Source: a virus (lineage: Duplodnaviria > Heunggongvirae > Uroviricota > Caudoviricetes). Taken from it: a DNA stretch of 38,623 nt. How positions within the stretch are numbered: position 1 is the first letter of the stretch; each line of letters starts with the position of its first letter. This document shows, piece after piece, positions 20,948 through 32,998 of this stretch. The position numbers were made by a program, and so were the translations under genes. The stretch lies in the IMG/VR virus record IMGVR_UViG_2684622552_000006, one strand, 5' to 3'. Under the pieces are notes generated by a model. That model was given only the letters and a program-made list of their open reading frames with translations. It searched no databases and was not told the DNA's origin.

Positions 20948-21679
20948 TTACATCATGTCTTTTTCTAAAAAAAATCTTGATGAATATTGATGGGGAGGAA
21001 CACCAAAATATCTTCTGAAAACACTTACAAAATATGACGTATTTTTATAACCGCATATCTCAGCAACTTTTCCAACAGAATATAAATTGTAGCTTAATAA
21101 CCTTTCCGCCATCACCATTCGCTCTTCAAGAATTAACTTACTAAATGATAAGCCTTCGTGCTTTAATTTTCTTTTTAACAGACTTTCACTCAGATACAGT
21201 CTTGAAGATATATCACAAAGTCTCCATGCTGCAGATATATCCGTGTGAATAATAGCCTTAACTTTACTTCCTAAACTATTAAGACATCCAAATAAAAAAC
21301 TTTGCACTATTTTCTCTGAAGATAAGATAGCAAGACATGCAAGTGATATTTGATTTCTAACAAAATCCACAGTTCTGCCATCACAATTCAAGCATGCAAT
21401 CAAGTTCTTTAACAATGAAAAATCTTCACATTCCACCATCAAGTATGCCGGATAAAACCTTCTTACAGAAAAAGGTGAGAGTGTGTTGCTTTTAAAGAAA
21501 TCATTAACTGTTTTCTCTTCAACATCTACGATCATTACATGATCTATATTTGATGAAAAAAAATCTTTTAAATTGTAATCAATGAGAACAGCACTTCCTT
21601 TTTTAAACAAAATATCTTCTTTACCAATTCGGGCATCAAACGAATTCAACACCAAAATGATAGAACATATGTATGGCAT
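20948..21679 (-). CDS. AraC-family transcriptional regulator (AppY/PatE-like cargo)
   Basis: C-terminal AraC-type HTH (YSVGKVAEICGYKNTSYFVSVFRRYFGVPPHQY); visibly AT-rich; sits between Q and holin. ATG 21679 preceded by AGGTGG; the track start at 21688 is GTG. Confidence 0.8.
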   Translation of the reverse strand: MPYICSIILVLNSFDARIGKEDILFKKGSAVLIDYNLKDFFSSNIDHVMIVDVEEKTVNDFFKSNTLSPFSVRRFYPAYLMVECEDFSLLKNLIACLNCDGRTVDFVRNQISLACLAILSSEKIVQSFLFGCLNSLGSKVKAIIHTDISAAWRLCDISSRLYLSESLLKRKLKHEGLSFSKLILEERMVMAERLLSYNLYSVGKVAEICGYKNTSYFVSVFRRYFGVPPHQYSSRFFLEKDMM

Positions 21680-22028
21680 ATTATCCACCTGATATCATTG
21701 AGGTTACACCAGGTAAGTATAGGTGGAAAATCAATATTCGCCAGTTCAACAATAAGGAAAATCTCATTGCATCACAAGTATAAAATTATGTATTTAACTC
21801 ACAAAGACAAATTATTAAACCAATCTGTTATATTATATATAGCTGCGTGGAATCATAATATTATATTTTGACTGGCATGTTTACCAACTTTAAGTTGCAT
21901 CTCAATGGTTTCTTCAGCGTAAACAGAGTTTTTATACAAACTGACACTCTGGGTATCATAGTGTAGTTTTTACGATTGTAAATATCCTGCATGCAGGAAC
22001 TCATCCTTTTGGATGATATCGCATACAA

Positions 22029-22988
22029 TTAATTTACCATCAGTCTTAGAGCCAGTTCGTCCGGATAGGGATCGAAGTAATTCTGTGTAAGCAAGTAATC
22101 ATTAGGATACTCACCCAGATAATGCTTCAGCAGAGTCAACGGCGCAAGAAGAGGTAATGTGCCAGAACGATAGTTAAGTATAACCTCGCTCAACTCTTTA
22201 CGCTGGCGTGTACTTAAGTAGTTACTAAAATACCCCTGTATATGCATCAGCACATTCGTGTGATTTTTACGTGATGCAGGTTTTCTGAGAATCGCCATCA
22301 GCTTATCACGATACACCTCAAAGTATGATTCAAGGTCCGCCCACTCGTGTATTGCAGCCACAAATGGTCCCATATCTTTATAGCCTGCCTGACTATGCGC
22401 CAATAACTGAAGCTTATAACGACTATGAAAAGCTAATAACTCTCTTCTTGATAATTTCTCCTTGTAAAGATGATTGAGCTCATGCAAAGCAAAAACTCTT
22501 TCAACAAAATTCTCACGAAGCACTGGATCATGTAATCGCCCATCCTCTTCAACCGGTAGCCAGGAAAACTTTTCCATCAAAGTGCTCGTAAATAGTCCCA
22601 CTCCATCTTTACGACCTTGATTACCATTTTCATCATAGACACGCACGCGCTCCATGCCACAGCTGGGAGATTTAGCACAAACCACAAATCCCGATACATC
22701 CTTTAATTTGTCCATATAAGAACGACTAAACTCTGTCATTCTCTCTGTCACATCCTCATTCTGGTCGTGGCTGAAACACATCCGTATATTTCCTTGCGTC
22801 GAGCGCACAAGACGTAGAGCAGGACGCGGAACTGGCAGCCCTATAGCCATTTCTGGACATACTGGTCTGAATGTTACCCATTCCACTAATTTGTCCATTA
22901 AAAAGTCAGCTCTTTTGTGACCACCATCAAAACGAACAGCAGAACCGGTCAAACAACCGCTGATTCCAATCACAGGTTTTTTTATCAT
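22029..22988 (-). CDS. DUF523/DUF1722 fusion protein (YbgA/TudS-like)
   Basis: N-terminal Cys-containing ISGCLTG...VRFDGGHKR resembles DUF523; C-terminal half resembles DUF1722. From memory only. ATG 22988 with GGGGGAG upstream. Confidence 0.5.
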   Translation of the reverse strand: MIKKPVIGISGCLTGSAVRFDGGHKRADFLMDKLVEWVTFRPVCPEMAIGLPVPRPALRLVRSTQGNIRMCFSHDQNEDVTERMTEFSRSYMDKLKDVSGFVVCAKSPSCGMERVRVYDENGNQGRKDGVGLFTSTLMEKFSWLPVEEDGRLHDPVLRENFVERVFALHELNHLYKEKLSRRELLAFHSRYKLQLLAHSQAGYKDMGPFVAAIHEWADLESYFEVYRDKLMAILRKPASRKNHTNVLMHIQGYFSNYLSTRQRKELSEVILNYRSGTLPLLAPLTLLKHYLGEYPNDYLLTQNYFDPYPDELALRLMVN

Positions 22989-23180
22989 ATTCTCCCCCTT
23001 GACTAATTCATTAACACATAAACTGTGTAGTGCACGGAATAAATTGCCTTTCTGGCGTCATCACTGACAATTTTTCTGTTATGGACTATTCCTAATATAG
23101 TATGAAAGTTCTTTAAGTGATCGGTCGTAATCATCTATCTTTCATACTTACTCTCAACTATCAAAAGTACAGGATTTATT

Positions 23181-23705
23181 ATGAAGTTATGGCCTGTGTT
23201 GACTGGCATTGCACTCTCTTTCACTCTTATAGCATGTAAGGCCCCGACACCACCTAAAGGTGTGCAGCCGATTACAAATTTTGACGCCAACCGCTACCTC
23301 GGAAAATGGTATGAAATAGCTCGCCTCGAGAACCGGTTCGAACGTGGTCTGGAACAGGTCAGCGCTACTTATGGAAAACGGAACGACGGAGGGATTCGTG
23401 TACTTAACCGTGGATACGATCCAACGAAAAATAAATGGAGCGAGAGCGAAGGTAAAGCATACTTTACTGGAGATACTAAAACTGCAGCGTTGAAGGTTTC
23501 GTTTTTTGGCCCCTTCTATGGTGGCTATAATGTAATCAAACTGGATGATGAGTATAAGTATGCTCTTGTCAGTGGTCCGAACAGAGAATACCTATGGATT
23601 CTGGCAAGGACCCCAACTATTCCAGATAAAGTAAAAGCAGACTATGTGCGAACCGCTCAAAAGTTGGGATTCAATGTCAATGAATTATTATGGGTTAAAC
23701 AATAA
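23181..23705 (+). CDS. Bacterial lipocalin (Blc-like outer-membrane lipoprotein)
   Basis: Signal peptide with lipobox (FTLIAC); NFDANRYLGKWYEIARLENRFERGLEQV and SFFGPFYGGYNVI match the E. coli Blc pattern as recalled. Opposite strand to the late operon. Confidence 0.8.
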   Translation: MKLWPVLTGIALSFTLIACKAPTPPKGVQPITNFDANRYLGKWYEIARLENRFERGLEQVSATYGKRNDGGIRVLNRGYDPTKNKWSESEGKAYFTGDTKTAALKVSFFGPFYGGYNVIKLDDEYKYALVSGPNREYLWILARTPTIPDKVKADYVRTAQKLGFNVNELLWVKQ

Positions 23706-25914: not shown

Positions 25915-26271
25915 TTAATTGTGCTTTATTCCTTCAAGCGTTGCCTTCATACCAACCAAAGAAATGTTTAGCTCTCCAACTTTCTCAGGGCTATATAATT
26001 CAGAATGAAGCCAATATTCTGATTTATCTAAACATCTTTTAGCCAGCTCTCGATCAAAGTCTACGACTTGGGAAGACGCTTCATACCAAAGCCTATAAAG
26101 TTTTTCTTCTTCGTTTGGGTTATTAGGCTCACCACGTTTTAATTTTTCAGTATATAAAATTGTTGAACAAATCGCAGGAGTTAATCCAGTGATTGCCCTC
26201 TGCCGCAGATCGGATTTGTTTGTTATCCACCCCAACAGACGATCTCCCATCCATGTAATAATTGTATCCAT
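25915..26271 (-). CDS. Hypothetical protein (AT-rich orphan)
   Basis: 118-aa ORF with ATG 26271 preceded by AAGAAGG; no family recognised. Confidence 0.45.
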   Translation of the reverse strand: MDTIITWMGDRLLGWITNKSDLRQRAITGLTPAICSTILYTEKLKRGEPNNPNEEEKLYRLWYEASSQVVDFDRELAKRCLDKSEYWLHSELYSPEKVGELNISLVGMKATLEGIKHN

Positions 26272-26732: not shown

Positions 26733-27341
26733 CTACTGTAATCGTTCCGAACGTAAATGCGGCAATACCCTGCTCCACTTATTATCCTGCCAAGGCTGGA
26801 ATTTTACATGTGCCGTTTCTCTGGCAAGGATTTCGCGCGCCTTATGTAGTATCTGGGGATATTCTTGCTCGATAGAAGTAAAGCGCCCGGCCTCACGATG
26901 CTCTGCTACCTGAAGAAGTGGAGTAACATTCTGGCAGGCGGTTAACATCACATCACTTGCTCGCCATAACCAAGCAAGTGTGCAAAGTTCGTTATCAGTG
27001 AATTGTTTTGTGATTGGGGATTGTTGAATTTCTCGATCGAGAATATCCAGCACCCAGCGGCGGAATTCTTTGGCCACAGGAGTACGAGCAAACATGGCGA
27101 TCAAATGGGCTCCGCGAAGGCTAAATACTCGAGACTCCTGCATTCCACGAGGGGTGGTCACTTTGACCCCCCTTGTCATCATATCTGTAAATTCATCTGA
27201 GTGACGAGAGTAAATGCGCTGAACTGCTTTATCGTCCGCATATTCCAGAGCTAAACCAACTTCAGTGGCAGTAAGCCAAATTCTGTTATTGTGGCAAATT
27301 GGGGCAAACGTCGTTTTGTGGAATGCTAATTGAGTAGTCAT
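26733..27341 (-). CDS. Bro-N domain protein (antirepressor-like)
   Basis: N-terminal AFHKTTFAPICHNNRIWLTATEVGLALEY resembles Bro-N / KilA-N type domains (from memory); ATG 27341 preceded by GAGGTGAT. Confidence 0.55.
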   Translation of the reverse strand: MTTQLAFHKTTFAPICHNNRIWLTATEVGLALEYADDKAVQRIYSRHSDEFTDMMTRGVKVTTPRGMQESRVFSLRGAHLIAMFARTPVAKEFRRWVLDILDREIQQSPITKQFTDNELCTLAWLWRASDVMLTACQNVTPLLQVAEHREAGRFTSIEQEYPQILHKAREILARETAHVKFQPWQDNKWSRVLPHLRSERLQ

Positions 27342-27497
27342 AGTATCACCTCATCAGGTTAACCATCACCACCAACGACGCCAATCGACTGGTGGTGAAC
27401 TGTGCAAGGTTGGCGTAACCGGCTACTCAAACCCGGCGCTTCCGAAGAAGCCCTCACACAGCCCACCATAATTTGGGCATAGCCGTGCTTAGCGCAC

Positions 27498-27578
27498 AAA
27501 AAAACCGCTTAACGCGGTATGCGTTGAGTAGTATCCCGGGACGCCAATCCCGTGTGCCGATTTTGCGGCAACGCACAG
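27498..27578 (-). ncRNA. Candidate small RNA (promoter to terminator unit, about 75 nt)
   Basis: Minus-strand sigma70-like promoter (TTGACG, 18-nt spacer, TATATT; plus coordinates 27603..27608 and 27579..27584). Predicted transcript folds by eye into a closing stem GCGUUG/CAACGC around two hairpins, then a short GC stem plus T-run terminator (27498..27518). No ORF of 60 aa or more. Confidence 0.3.
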
Positions 27579-27835
27579 AATATAGCGCCGGATAAATCTT
27601 GTCGTCAACCTATAAAATGGCGTCTGCGAACGGCTCCATAACACGATACTGCATGAGCTTTATAAGGTTATGTTCCGTAAAAGTTGTATGTAGATCTCGG
27701 TACATTACAATTGAATCTTAATGAGTGGCAGACGCACTATAATAATGAAATAACGCATCATGGAAAAATGTTTAGCAGATTAACGCAAATGGGCACGTTA
27801 CTTGATGGAAAGTGCATTTGAGCCGAGAGAAACTT

Positions 27836-27888
27836 AAAAAAAATGTAATCTGACAGGTATCGACATAAATAATCGCTCACTGTCAGAT
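27836..27888 (-). terminator. Hairpin and T8 run downstream of the two-gene AT-rich operon
   Basis: 9-bp inverted repeat ATCTGACAG/CTGTCAGAT (27848..27856 and 27880..27888) with 23-nt loop, followed on the minus strand by eight T residues. Confidence 0.4.
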
Positions 27889-27920
27889 CTCAACTAATAT
27901 ATATTACATAGCCAAACTCA

Positions 27921-28256
27921 TTATGCCTTGCCAACATCCTCTCGCTTACCAAACATATATCCTAAAGAAAGGGTTAACAAAGGTGAAAATGTAGACCAAG
28001 TTTCTTTAATAATATCAACACAACCTTGACCATTATTATTCCACAAATCATACACACATAATATAAAAATTATGGCGCTATACATATAAAGTGTGTAGGT
28101 TATTATTTTCCAGACAATACTATTTTTAGCATTTTCACCTTCACCAATCGTCTTAGCTATTTCTCCAGAGGACGCCAGACCTTTAGCGGTATTGCTAAAT
28201 TGCCCTGAGGGGGAAGCAACGTAAGTATTTTCATGTTGATCATTAAATGATGACAT
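27921..28256 (-). CDS. Hypothetical membrane protein (one predicted TM helix)
   Basis: 111 aa; hydrophobic stretch IVWKIITYTLYMYSAIIFILCVYDLW; ATG is 1 nt after the upstream stop (TAA-C-ATG); visibly AT-rich. Confidence 0.5.
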   Translation of the reverse strand: MSSFNDQHENTYVASPSGQFSNTAKGLASSGEIAKTIGEGENAKNSIVWKIITYTLYMYSAIIFILCVYDLWNNNGQGCVDIIKETWSTFSPLLTLSLGYMFGKREDVGKA

Positions 28257-28257
28257 G

Positions 28258-28614
28258 TTAATCCTTTATGATGTTAATAATTACGACCCTGCTGGTTTTA
28301 TTTACTGTCTGTATCCATACTGTTAGATAGTGCTGTACATTATCCACAATATAGAAAGGAAATGGTTCTAAAATACCTTCACCCAAACCATTCTTGAAAT
28401 TAATGAATGATACAGTATAAGACTGCCCGCCATCGCTTGGACCAGCTTCATATCGAGAAGATTTATCATCATCATCATATCTAAATGTCATATGAAATTT
28501 TTTATCATCGAACATTTTCAATGTTATACGATCATCATTATTATGAATGAGCAATGTCTTCGAATAAACAACAACACGATTACTAATTAATGTTTCTTTG
28601 ACTATATCATTCAT
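28258..28614 (-). CDS. Hypothetical small protein, first gene of the AT-rich two-gene operon
   Basis: ATG 28614 with AGGTGG 5 nt upstream (the track start at 28623 is GTG); Asp/Lys-rich; visibly AT-rich. Confidence 0.5.
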   Translation of the reverse strand: MNDIVKETLISNRVVVYSKTLLIHNNDDRITLKMFDDKKFHMTFRYDDDDKSSRYEAGPSDGGQSYTVSFINFKNGLGEGILEPFPFYIVDNVQHYLTVWIQTVNKTSRVVIINIIKD

Positions 28615-28643
28615 TTTAGCCACCTATAAAAAATAATCCTATC

Positions 28644-28672
28644 ATTATAAAACCCATCGTTTATCAATACAA
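28644..28672 (-). promoter_or_regulatory. Putative sigma70 promoter of the AT-rich two-gene operon
   Basis: On the minus strand: TTGTAT, 17-nt spacer, TATAAT, ending about 30 nt upstream of ATG 28614. Confidence 0.35.
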
Positions 28673-28753
28673 CTTGTTTCAAGTATTCAATTAGTTCCCC
28701 CCTTTAATCAAAGTCATATCTGATATGAATTTCAAAAATTGCTACCTTACCCA

Positions 28754-29455
28754 TTATGATCTACCTCCTTTCAGTCCGAACTTAGCTTTGATTTCTGCGA
28801 TCTTCGCCAGAGCCTGTGCACGATTTAGAGGTCTACCCCCCATGACAGGAAGTTGTTTCACTGGTTCAGGGATTGCCTCACCACGGTTAATTCTCGCAGT
28901 CATATGGACAAGCTCATCTGCGGCCTTGCGCCGTAATTCCGCGTCAGTCAACGCATTGGCCCGCATGTTCTGGTACAGATTGGTAACCAGCCAGTAGTGC
29001 GCGTTTGATTTCCACGGATAAGACTCTGCATCTGGATACAGTCCACGCTTCCGGCAATACTCGTAAACCATATCAACCAGCTCGCTGGCGTTTGGCAGTC
29101 CGGCAATAACAGATGCTTCTTCACGACACCAGGCAACAAACTGCCCGGGTGATGGCAGGAATGGTCGATTCTGCCGACGGGCTACGCGCATTCCTGCGTT
29201 AACCTGTTCCATTGTGGTGATCCCGTTTTCCCGGAAAGCCAGAACCCACTGGCGGCGGATTTCGTTCAGTTCGTTCTGGTCACGATTAGCCAGGCTCGCC
29301 GGGAAAGTTGCCAGTAACTGGCTGAACACACCGTTGATGATCTGCGCTACCTGCTGTACCTGCGGCTTTTCGTCGTACTGTTCCGGCATGTTGTTGGCGA
29401 TCCGGCGCATCTGCTCACGGTCAAAGTTAACCATCTGTGCGGCGATGTTTTTCAT
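28754..29455 (-). CDS. P: Replication protein P (lambda P-like helicase loader)
   Basis: 233 aa, essentially the lambda P sequence as recalled (MKNIAAQMVNFDREQMRRIANNMPEQYDEKPQVQQVAQIINGVFSQLLATFPAS...). Confidence 0.9.
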   Translation of the reverse strand: MKNIAAQMVNFDREQMRRIANNMPEQYDEKPQVQQVAQIINGVFSQLLATFPASLANRDQNELNEIRRQWVLAFRENGITTMEQVNAGMRVARRQNRPFLPSPGQFVAWCREEASVIAGLPNASELVDMVYEYCRKRGLYPDAESYPWKSNAHYWLVTNLYQNMRANALTDAELRRKAADELVHMTARINRGEAIPEPVKQLPVMGGRPLNRAQALAKIAEIKAKFGLKGGRS

Positions 29456-30467: not shown

Positions 30468-31013
30468 TCATATCGCCCCCAGCATGGTGGTGACCATCGC
30501 CATCAATGGACCAGCCAGATCCGGGTCCACACGAAACATCGACACAATGCCTTCACTCATCTCCTTCAGTTTCTGGTGGCGTGGCGCGTTGAGAATGACA
30601 GCCTGTTTTGCTTCACTGAGTTCCTTTTCCATTTCAGCCAGCCGAGCCATGAAGCTATCCTGCTCAACCAGGTAACCGCGATATTCCAGCGGTAGTACCG
30701 CCAGAATTGCCGGGGTCAGTTCACGCACGTTATTTCGGTATTTTTCAGAATCGAATTTGTTATCGAGGAAGCGGAACAGCTTCTGGCGTGCACGGCTGAC
30801 ATCATCAGGGAAATCGATGGTGCCGCCGCCCTGCTCCCGATACTCATTCACAATGAGTGCGGCAACAACATCCTGATTATCTGCAGCCGACCAGGCGCGA
30901 ACGGCATCACGGATTTTTTCGTGGCCTGGCACCTGTTTTGTTTGAGAACGATTTATCACCGCAGTCGGGCTAAATCCGCTAGTCTGTTGGTATGTAAGTG
31001 GTTGCATAGTCAT
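30468..31013 (-). CDS. Regulatory protein in the cII position (YdaT-like?)
   Basis: 181-aa ORF between cro-like gene and O; weak remembered resemblance to YdaT-family proteins (EYREQGGG segment). Assignment uncertain. Confidence 0.4.
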   Translation of the reverse strand: MTMQPLTYQQTSGFSPTAVINRSQTKQVPGHEKIRDAVRAWSAADNQDVVAALIVNEYREQGGGTIDFPDDVSRARQKLFRFLDNKFDSEKYRNNVRELTPAILAVLPLEYRGYLVEQDSFMARLAEMEKELSEAKQAVILNAPRHQKLKEMSEGIVSMFRVDPDLAGPLMAMVTTMLGAI

Positions 31014-31265: not shown

Positions 31266-31375
31266 TATCAATTCCTATTGGTATTGCAATGAATGGATAA
31301 TAGCAATGCGTATTAATCCAAGCAATAGCAAAACGTGTTTTGACCATCAATACGCAAGCGTATAAATTAAAACTT
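31266..31375. promoter_or_regulatory. cro-cI divergent promoter/operator region
   Basis: Contains several copies of an ATAGCAAT-like motif. Minus-strand promoter for cro: TTGCTT, 17-nt spacer, TATTAT. Plus-strand promoter for cI: TTGACC (31340..31345), 15-nt spacer, TATAAA (31361..31366), placing the start at or just before the cI ATG (leaderless-like). Confidence 0.6.
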
Positions 31376-32068
31376 ATGAAAAAAGAAACTCTTGCTGATC
31401 GCTTAAACCTAGCGATGGAACAATCTGGAATGTCTCAAGGCGCTCTTGCAAAGGCGTCTGGCGTAGCTCAACCCACAATCTGGAGACTGACAAGCGGCAA
31501 CGCGCGCGGCTCAACAAAAATTGTTGAAATAGCTAATGCATTGGGTGTTCGAACAGAGTGGCTCTCATCAGGCATAGGCCCGATGAGAAATGACGGTCAA
31601 CAATCAGGGAAGCCTGCTGTCAACCATTCCAAATACTTCAAGATTGACGTTCTTGATATAGAAGTCAGTGCCGGGCCGGGAGTCATCAACCGTGAGTTTG
31701 TAGAAGTTCTACGCTCGGTTGAGTACTCGTTTGACGATGCTCGTCACATGTTCGATGGTAGGAAGGCAGAAAATATCCGCATCATTAACGTACGCGGTGA
31801 CAGCATGTCAGGAACGATCGAACCAGGTGATCTTCTGTTCGTTGATATCACGGTTAAATCTTTCGACGGTGATGGCATCTATGCGTTTCTGTACGACGAC
31901 ACCGCCCATGTAAAGCGCCTGCAAATGATGAAGGATAAGCTGCTGGTTATCTCTGATAACAAGAGCTACTCACCGTGGGACCCGATCGAGAAAGACGAGA
32001 TGAACCGGGTGTTCATCTTCGGTAAGGTTATTGGGAGCATGCCCCAGACGTACAGGAAACATGGATAA
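31376..32068 (+). CDS. cI: CI-type prophage repressor (HTH plus S24 LexA-like peptidase)
   Basis: N-terminal HTH (MSQGALAKASGVAQPTIWRL) and C-terminal S24 autopeptidase features (VRGDSMSGTIEPGDLLFVD ... KRL); ATG 31376 has no Shine-Dalgarno sequence. Confidence 0.85.
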   Translation: MKKETLADRLNLAMEQSGMSQGALAKASGVAQPTIWRLTSGNARGSTKIVEIANALGVRTEWLSSGIGPMRNDGQQSGKPAVNHSKYFKIDVLDIEVSAGPGVINREFVEVLRSVEYSFDDARHMFDGRKAENIRIINVRGDSMSGTIEPGDLLFVDITVKSFDGDGIYAFLYDDTAHVKRLQMMKDKLLVISDNKSYSPWDPIEKDEMNRVFIFGKVIGSMPQTYRKHG

Positions 32069-32134: not shown

Positions 32135-32998
32135 ATGGATTGTGACGCTTTACAGGATATAAAAATCTCTCTTAGGTATGACGGAAAAGATGCTTTAAAT
32201 CATGAAATAGATTTGAACTGCCTAGGAGAATCCCTAAAGGGTTTTTCTAAAGTTCTCTCAACAGCAGCTTCTTTCTCTGTTACACAAAAATATAGTAAAT
32301 ACATTAATTATCAGGAAGTTAAGGTTTACGCACGCGAAGCAAAAGCTAACTGCTTTACTCTTGAAGCAGTTCTTAACTTCGCCACTCAGAACCAGTTGTT
32401 CTCGGGGATCGCCGCAACTATACTTGGCGCAATACTACAATATATTTTTGCGAGAAATTCTAACAAGAAAGATGAAATGAAAGCTTTGCAGCAGTCACTT
32501 GAAAAGGCCATAGAGGCACTAGGAAACAAGGATGCTGGAACCATTGATAAGTTGATCTCTTTGATTGACCGAATGGCTGTAGAGCTTCGCCCCTCTGTAA
32601 GGCAGGCAGTATCACCTATTGGTAATACTTGCGATCAGATAAGTGTTGCAACAAATGTTGACGGCTGCCTTCTAAAAGTTAACGAGAGAGATAAAGCTGA
32701 AATTGATAGGCTTGATGATGATGAAGTTCTCGGTCTTCGTGAGTATCGTGCTTTTCTTACAGAATTTGATGCACAAAATATGACAGCTAAAATAATTTTA
32801 GATGGTGATGACTCAAAAAAGAGAATCACTGCTGAAATTAGCGATCCAGCTGCAGGAAAGAAGAATAACCCGTATATTAGAGCTCTTAGTGCATATATAT
32901 CAACCAAAGGTGATCCATCTGCAGTATTCACTATAACCGCAAAGGCTACTGTTAAAAAAGGCCAGATAAACAGGTTATTTATTGTAGATGCGAAATGA
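32135..32998 (+). CDS. Hypothetical protein in the rexA-equivalent slot, co-directional with cI
   Basis: 287-aa ORF starting 67 nt after the cI stop, visibly AT-rich, followed by a strong terminator; one central hydrophobic segment ([18 protein letters not shown]); no family recognised. Confidence 0.6.

Follow-up and report, generated by a model that had tools for sequence, protein, structure and literature searches.

A mobile two-gene cassette pairing a DUF6864 protein with a two-helix membrane protein in a cargo slot of lambdoid prophages

The stretch of DNA analyzed here (the window; 38,623 nucleotides, IMG/VR record IMGVR_UViG_2684622552_000006) carries a lambdoid prophage in which two small genes, here called A and B, follow the replication gene P. 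Comparison with related prophages firmly established that the two genes form a horizontally acquired, mobile accessory module, which sits in a cargo hotspot of lambdoid prophages and replaced ren there. Gene A encodes a member of the Pfam family DUF6864, and gene B encodes a small protein with two predicted membrane helices. We consider it about an even bet (probability roughly 0.5) that the module serves a conflict-related function, in which a cytosolic A protein would serve as regulator or sensor and B as a pore-like membrane effector, leading to phage exclusion or abortive infection in prophages and to addiction on plasmids.

Organization of the cassette

The early-right operon of the prophage runs along the minus strand through cro, a YdaT-like gene, O (30471-29452) and P (29455-28754) to genes A and B, while the repressor gene cI is found on the plus strand (31340-32068). 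The cassette lies entirely on the minus strand, and its features deviate by at most 2 nt from the positions first assigned to them in a preliminary description of this DNA. Gene A (28614-28258) encodes 118 aa between an ATG at 28614 and a stop codon at 28260-28258, and gene B (28256-27921) encodes 111 aa between an ATG at 28256 and a stop codon at 27923-27921. A single nucleotide separates the two (TAA-C-ATG, 28258/28256), bearing out the tight coupling that had been noted from the sequence. The gene A start is the ATG used by RefSeq in Escherichia coli copies that are 99% identical; an in-frame GTG at 28623 is an alternative.

The promoter, Shine-Dalgarno sequence, and hairpin with a T8 run that had been described around these genes are all present as motifs. 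A sigma-70-like promoter candidate (28672-28644) consists of TTGTAT (28672-28667), a 17-nt spacer, and TATAAT (28649-28644), and the Shine-Dalgarno sequence AGGTGG (28625-28620) ends 5 nt before the gene A start. The terminator candidate (27889-27836) comprises a 43-nt hairpin (27889-27847) with an outer stem of 10 bp and an inner stem of 4 bp, also detected as inverted repeat I4, followed by ACA and then by T8 (27843-27836). Folding of a 96-nt RNA stretch that includes this hairpin gave -20.9 kcal/mol with a z-score of -2.3.

These signals are partly kept in relatives. The Lelliottia cassette displays TTGTAA-17-TATAAT at the homologous promoter position, where it is the top-scoring site of that cassette, and this conservation supports the promoter candidate of the window. 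Canonical terminators lie directly 3' of gene B in a Klebsiella prophage and in the Acinetobacter phage Ab105-2phi; in the E. coli plasmid pVCSW8, the nearest terminator is 90 nt 3' of gene B and may belong to the ColE1 backbone. The promoter and terminator motifs speak for a self-contained unit, which would be active in the lysogen and shielded from the c4-ant unit downstream, though they fall short of proof.

Acquisition of the cassette and replacement of ren

Base composition sets the cassette apart, in agreement with the higher AT content that the preliminary description had ascribed to both genes. The GC fraction across 27700-28750 is 0.27-0.37, compared to 0.50-0.58 in O and P and ~0.47-0.54 downstream; for the cassette itself it is 0.31-0.35 against ~0.53 in the flanks.

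The two genes lie in a variable cargo segment of ~1.1 kb (28727-27611, minus strand), bounded by P and a remnant of ren on one side and by the promoter of the c4-ant unit on the other. We located its junctions by BLAST against four E. coli prophages that have both flanks and other cargo between them. A megablast search with 27200-29100 found both flanks in ~3500 E. coli genomes. The cassette occurred in just 4 of the 5426 complete E. coli genomes, always in this slot and 99% identical. The cassette DNA had no match in sequenced phage records, and a tblastn search of A against phages found nothing. Prophages that share the flanks (92-97% identity) have different contents of comparable length between them, namely ren with a hypothetical gene, a Vch_cass14-family gene, other hypothetical genes, or IS1. 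The P-to-ant interval is a slot that exchanges many kinds of cargo. In two of the E. coli prophages examined (L023 and L026, 850-1197), the Vch_cass14-family gene in the slot, named after a Vibrio cholerae integron cassette protein, is on the opposite strand.

Homology with the E. coli prophages that carry ren or Vch_cass14 reaches ~28727, breaks, and resumes at 27610. At the upstream edge, a 16-codon mini-open reading frame (MGKVAIFEIHIRYDFD, then a stop codon; 28754-28704, minus strand) overlaps the P stop codon (TAATG) and preserves the start of ren, of which the first ~30 nt are still recognizable (MGKVAIF here versus MTGKEAII). Since the start of ren remains at the P stop codon, the cassette replaced ren and was not inserted beside it. 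The earlier placement of the pair directly after P, in the position of ren, is thus upheld, with P itself confirmed by PF06992 (E 5e-62). We also considered that the genes could be ren homologues and rejected this, as A and B are unrelated to Ren and just those ~30 nt are left of it.

The downstream edge of the variable segment contains the C-terminal remnant of an IS481-family transposase (27616-27821, plus strand), convergent with gene B. Its assignment is based on the RefSeq annotation of the 99%-identical E. coli loci and on a weak rve_3 match (E 0.02), and it is cut exactly where homology to the other prophages resumes. This suggests that the cassette arrived with part of an insertion sequence, or that the insertion sequence was cut by the recombination that formed the junction. 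No direct or att-like repeats were found flanking the cassette. An Rfam search detected no RNA family inside it, so no type I antitoxin RNA is evident.

Beyond position 27611 begins a P1 immI-like unit (27610-27388, before ant) that is the downstream border of the slot. On the minus strand it contains a promoter-like site (27608-27579, TTGACG-18-TATATT), the c4 a1/b1 targets (27585-27533; Rfam 39.6 bits, under the gathering score of 46.7), isrK (27570-27498; Rfam 58.7 bits), and the C4 antisense RNA (27473-27388; Rfam 74.5 bits). The Bro-N/P22AR_C anti-repressor gene ant, recognized by Pfam, follows at 27341-26733 on the same strand.

We read the cassette as an accessory module of moron type. 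The arrangement resembles that of the morons described by Juhala and Hendrix (e.g., HK97 gp15), in which a promoter, a gene, and a terminator of deviant base composition lie between conserved genes and vary among phages. Here, too, the cassette is variable, it lies between the flanks P and c4-ant common to prophages with other cargo, and its composition deviates from that of the neighboring phage genes. It differs from a moron in having two genes rather than one, and the slot was never seen empty but always held alternative cargo.

The A-B pair in other replicons

To follow the pair beyond this prophage, we defined the module as a DUF6864 gene followed on the same strand by an open reading frame of 90-135 aa with two hydrophobic helices. 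Sixteen distinct cassettes were compared, from E. fergusonii/E. coli, Lelliottia, Klebsiella (two types), Citrobacter, Vibrio, the Pantoea plasmid pT88c_D, the E. coli plasmid pVCSW8, phage Ab105-2phi, and the loci L017, L020/L021, L022, L033, L034 and L036. The order A then B was kept in all 16, with a gap of 0-7 nt or an overlap. Membership was confirmed by local profile searches (hmmsearch), in which the A proteins reached E values of 6e-42 to 2e-19 and the B proteins of 3e-50 to 1e-26. A C-terminal motif of the TL(A/S)LGYxFG type occurs in 15 of the 16 partners, the exception being L034 (1943-2708), where the 133-aa partner has two transmembrane (TM) helices without the family motifs. The distant members of this set, from metagenomes, a high-GC prophage in IMG/VR, and Vibrio tasmaniensis, each have an overlapping or adjacent open reading frame of 91-133 aa with two hydrophobic peaks. 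In the V. tasmaniensis locus (L038, 296-1396), an extra gene for a 139-aa protein with a single TM helix is coupled upstream of the pair.

The ratios of non-synonymous to synonymous change (dN/dS), 0.06-0.43 at dS values near saturation, indicate purifying selection on both genes; for A alone, the ratio was <0.32 where computable. This conservation bears on the idea that A and B are two chance or degenerating open reading frames brought in with the IS481 fragment. AT-rich DNA is where spurious reading frames and promoter-like sites are common, and an insertion sequence remnant adjoins the cassette. However, conservation of both proteins extends across genera and classes, their dN/dS values are far below 1, A has a confident predicted fold, and the gene order and coupling persist in every one of the 16 cassettes. 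We give decaying junk next to no credence, and chance reading frames are rejected as refuted in practice by the conservation and the dN/dS values.

Within the Enterobacterales, A proteins share 32-57% identity and B proteins 49-77%, and non-synonymous change in A is 1.2-2.7 times that in B. A faster A with a slower B is as would be expected for a specificity component joined to a conserved effector.

The replicons that carry the pair are diverse. Among prophages, it occupies the P-nin slot in the window and in Lelliottia, the int-xis slot in Klebsiella and Citrobacter, and a position upstream of the terminase gene in Ab105-2phi, a cultured temperate Acinetobacter phage in which tblastn identified the pair as ORF36/ORF37. 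The tblastn searches also located it on mini-plasmids. In ColE1-type E. coli plasmids such as pVCSW8 (2941 bp), it is the sole recognizable cargo, with one 77-aa hypothetical protein encoded besides. The Pantoea agglomerans plasmid pT88c_D (2550 bp) carries the pair and, besides it, only a VbhA-family antitoxin gene. Gene order and these contexts show that the translationally coupled genes A and B are an obligate pair, traveling together among prophages, small plasmids, and defense islands. The recurrence of the pair elsewhere, the other cargo found between the same flanks, and its rarity in E. coli all agree with the acquired cassette that had been postulated for this locus.

Plasmid carriage raises the possibility of purely selfish addiction, in which B would be a membrane toxin and A its antitoxin, and post-segregational killing would stabilize plasmids and prophages with no anti-phage role. 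Such a toxin-antitoxin (TA) module would fit the plasmids, of which the 2.9-kb ColE1-type one has the pair as its sole recognizable cargo and the 2.5-kb one has little else. It would also fit the small coupled layout with the soluble gene first, which resembles antitoxin-toxin order; a PIN/ribbon-helix-helix pair lies close by in L020. Among known systems, type V GhoS/GhoT, like small membrane toxins in general, offers a parallel, with the gene for a small soluble protein ahead of one for a small two-helix membrane protein; plasmid carriage of the cassette would fit an addiction role. GhoS has a ferredoxin-like alpha/beta fold, whereas A is predicted to be all-beta without a helix. At twice the length of GhoT, B includes a cytosolic tail of 45 residues, and no Pfam match to GhoT or OrtT was obtained for B or four distant partners. 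With regard to type II systems, neither A nor B matches helix-turn-helix, ribbon-helix-helix, or AbrB antitoxin families or known toxin families in Pfam, and B is a membrane protein. Furthermore, no DNA-binding or RNase domain was recognizable in A by Pfam, the structural model, or fold search, the pair also occurs in prophage cargo hotspots and adjoining restriction-modification and candidate defense genes, and an A that diverges faster than B fits a sensor of changing phage cues and is unexpected for a simple antitoxin. The two readings overlap, in that many TA modules also act in defense, but addiction as the only function appears unlikely to us.

Defense-type neighborhoods

In contig L036, the pair lies between a YhcG/DUF1016 nuclease gene (PDC-S02, E 7e-116) and an AAA ATPase gene (PDC-S06, E 7.5e-81), both families being PADLOC candidate defense genes. 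In contig L022, it begins 12 nt after the specificity (S) subunit gene of a type I restriction-modification system, and in L020 the PIN/ribbon-helix-helix pair is nearby. In the Lelliottia prophage, the P-nin slot is shared with a gene of defense-type appearance just upstream of the DUF6864 pair. Its product (L008, 2206-4902) is an 898-aa protein with a double-stranded RNA-binding motif (E 6e-11) and a C-terminal HNH nuclease domain (E 2.5e-13).

These contexts also bear on non-abortive superinfection exclusion, in which B in the inner membrane would block phage DNA entry or receptor function, as do P22 SieA, HK97 gp15, and T4 Imm, with A as an accessory. A membrane protein carried by prophages in a moron-like unit is what such a function would lead one to expect, and its presence in the int-xis slot of Klebsiella and Citrobacter prophages is in line with it. 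Known exclusion proteins, however, act alone and need no strictly linked cytosolic partner, and no match to the Pfam superinfection-immunity or Sie families was found. The presence of the pair on tiny plasmids and in non-prophage defense contexts of distant taxa fits a host-independent effector better than a phage-specific block to entry. We therefore regard non-abortive exclusion as quite doubtful.

The gene A protein

The gene A product was assigned to DUF6864 (PF21732) with an E value of 8.6e-15 and 55 bits against a gathering cut-off of 27, and the match covers 5-107 of the 114 profile positions. RefSeq labels the E. coli copies of A in the same way, and A is identical to E. fergusonii WP_046080624.1. 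The preliminary description had recognized no family for either protein; this did not hold for A, a member of an uncharacterized family without an assigned function, but it stood for B. Other than DUF6864, A matches just two weak PHROGs of unknown function. Finding the relatives of A required an exhaustive HMMER search, since a faster word-indexed search recovered its own cluster alone and the profile version 13 proteins.

The AlphaFold2 (AF2) model of A is confident (pLDDT 94.4) and comprises eight beta strands and no helix; it had no fold match in the PDB. Reading of the sequence gave no signal peptide. Across the family, F44 and N72 are invariant, and a loop N-F-x-N-x-L-G-E-G is a signature. 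We propose that A is a cytosolic regulator or sensor partner of B.

The gene B protein

The AF2 model of B displays a disordered N-terminal tail (residues 1-44) and helices at 47-74 and 79-109, and both helices are also seen in the hydropathy profile and in the family alignments. The single TM helix previously attributed to B is thus corrected to two, and a single-TM protein was rejected. With basic residues bordering the helices N- and C-terminally and an acidic loop between them, an N-in/C-in helical hairpin is the likely topology. Thr, Ser, and Tyr are abundant in both helices, and G99xxxG103 lies in the second.

Two motifs characterize the partners, a juxtamembrane G-x-G-(E/D)-(N/D)-A-(K/R)-x-S and a C-terminal P-x-x-T-L-x-L-G-Y-x-F-G. 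B carries the juxtamembrane sequence IGEGENAKNS and the C-terminal sequence PLLTLSLGYMFGK, which correspond to them as IGEGENAKNS and PLLTLSLGYMFG, respectively. Over ten diverse partners, G38, T95, L96, G99, F102, and G103 are invariant. B is identical to E. fergusonii WP_046080623.1, and its relatives in Lelliottia, Pantoea, Klebsiella, and Citrobacter show 49-77% identity to it. No match to B was found in Pfam, PHROG, PADLOC, or NCBIfam, four distant partners also had no Pfam match, and a contig scan with B found no relative. We propose that B is a membrane effector.

Small N-in/C-in hairpins with polar faces, as would be expected for a pore-former under a cytosolic partner, are also seen among the class II holins and antiholins and among the 2-TM abortive-infection effectors of CBASS, Pycsar, and retron systems. 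The cassette differs from these in lying outside the lysis cassette and in having no nucleotide-signaling or reverse-transcriptase partner. B had no Pfam or PHROG match to holin or T4 Imm-type families, with which it has just the two-helix topology in common.

The similarity to holins relates to a further explanation, namely that the pair serves a function of the phage or plasmid itself, as a ren-like replication accessory, a holin/antiholin lysis regulator, a bacteriocin accompanied by an immunity or release protein, or a membrane factor of lysogenic conversion. The cassette does sit in the ren position, the size and two-helix layout of B are those of class II holins, and small ColE1-type plasmids often carry bacteriocin operons. 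Conversely, the cassette is absent from nearly all related prophages and is therefore not needed for replication or lysis. It is far from the lysis genes, its position differs among phages, no holin, colicin, or microcin family was matched, and A has no secretion signal or leader. An own function of this kind is improbable.

Proposed mechanism and comparison with known systems

The closest functional analogy for the conflict-related role that we favor is offered by RexA/RexB of lambda and by the Rex-like two-gene systems of actinophages, Sbash gp30/31 and CarolAnn gp43/44 (PMC6426606). Like the cassette, these are prophage two-gene units that encode a cytosolic protein and a small polytopic membrane protein, and the membrane protein of Rex depolarizes the cell upon superinfection. 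The differences are nevertheless clear. RexA and RexB are 279 aa and 144 aa long, the latter with four TM helices, compared to 118 aa for A and 111 aa with two TM helices for B; Rex is found beside cI, while the cassette is beside P, ~2.7 kb from cI; and A has a predicted all-beta fold without a solved relative. Neither A nor B had a Pfam or PADLOC match to RexAB at E <= 1. Extending this, no family of PADLOC-DB v2.0.0, its PDC candidates included, matched A or B at E <= 1, and full-text searches of the literature found no mention of DUF6864 paired with a 2-TM partner. The module is a credible defense candidate, in which a prophage-borne soluble partner and a putative membrane effector would both be uncatalogued components.

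In the mechanism that we envisage, the cassette would be transcribed in the lysogen from its own promoter, with transcription stopping at its own terminator. B would insert into the inner membrane as an N-in/C-in hairpin, with its hydroxyl- and aromatic-rich helices and the GxxxG of the second, and would oligomerize into a pore or channel that is toxic to the cell. A would bind the conserved juxtamembrane motif or the disordered cytosolic tail of B and would either keep B inactive or switch it on upon a phage cue. A superinfecting phage would then be excluded by membrane depolarization, as in abortive infection, and on plasmids the same pair may function as an addiction module. From the architecture and the contexts, we infer a pair of the general kind suggested in the preliminary description (toxin-antitoxin, abortive infection, or superinfection exclusion), with which both are consistent. 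Somewhat short of even odds, we tentatively put forward a stronger claim, that DUF6864 and its 2-TM partner may constitute an unrecognized, self-sufficient anti-phage (abortive-infection) system with a new sensor fold and a small pore-forming effector, spreading among prophage hotspots of Enterobacterales, Vibrio, Acinetobacter, and more distant bacteria.

Several observations weigh against such a function. A and B have no homology in Pfam, PHROG, PADLOC, or NCBIfam to validated defense, TA, holin, or exclusion proteins. Full-text searches of the literature returned no mention of DUF6864, PF21732, or the protein accessions, and the supplements of DefensePredictor and of a metagenomic defense selection contained no match. 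DUF6864 is a small family, with 24 representatives at E <= 1e-3 among 1.84 billion proteins in the exhaustive HMMER search. The association with defense islands comes from three short metagenomic contigs and no statistical survey. For B, TM2 of the enterobacterial proteins is just moderately hydrophobic. As to expression, the -35 element of the promoter candidate is weak (3 of 6 consensus bases) and the site was unlisted by the consensus scan, and promoter-like matches in the AT-rich stretch are at chance level (9 versus 6.4 +/- 2.6 in shuffles). The terminator hairpin is atypical, with ~23 nt between the outer-stem arms, more than the loop limit of the scan, which missed it. Finally, H-NS often silences AT-rich foreign DNA, and expression in the lysogen is not assured.

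If the pair does protect against phages, it would be a very small and tractable addition to the defense repertoire (~230 codons in total, ~0.8 kb), combining a cytosolic part without a structural relative and a membrane effector without a catalogued family, and it would assign a function to Pfam DUF6864. Its presence in Klebsiella pneumoniae prophages and in a temperate phage of Acinetobacter baumannii would be relevant to host range in phage therapy. Were it an addiction module alone, its interest would be modest. The P-to-ant interval of lambdoid prophages is in itself a cargo-swapping hotspot, where ren, Vch_cass14, IS elements, and the cassette alternate.

Other features of the prophage

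Directly after the cI-like gene, in the position of lambda rexAB, a gene at 32135-32998 (plus strand) specifies a protein of 287 aa that matches DUF7946 (E 4e-55), DUF7947 (E 1e-18) and, weakly, the PADLOC candidate PDC-S42 (E 1.5e-4). It may be a second accessory or defense gene. At the cII position, a gene at 30468-31013 (minus strand) encodes a 181-aa protein that RefSeq names "toxin YdaT domain-containing protein" in near-identical E. coli prophages, and not a lambda-type CII.

A second AT-rich island (GC ~0.37-0.40) lies between ant and ninB at 25915-26271 (minus strand). It encodes a 118-aa protein of phrog_12412 (E 8e-70), a family of unknown function, and may be another moron. The interval from the antiterminator gene Q (24252-23860) to the lysis region, which in Stx phages houses the toxin genes, contains cargo of non-phage appearance at 20948-23705. 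A lipocalin gene lies on the plus strand (23181-23705), and two further genes encode a 2-thiouracil desulfurase/DUF1722 protein (22988-22029) and an AraC-type regulator (21688-20948).

The open reading frame at 1679-2242 and its neighbors are tail and baseplate genes of P2/Mu type (Tail_P2_I, E 7e-40), and the RefSeq relatives have baseplate V and GP46 genes. With these joined to a lambdoid early region, the prophage is a mosaic whose tail is not lambda-like.

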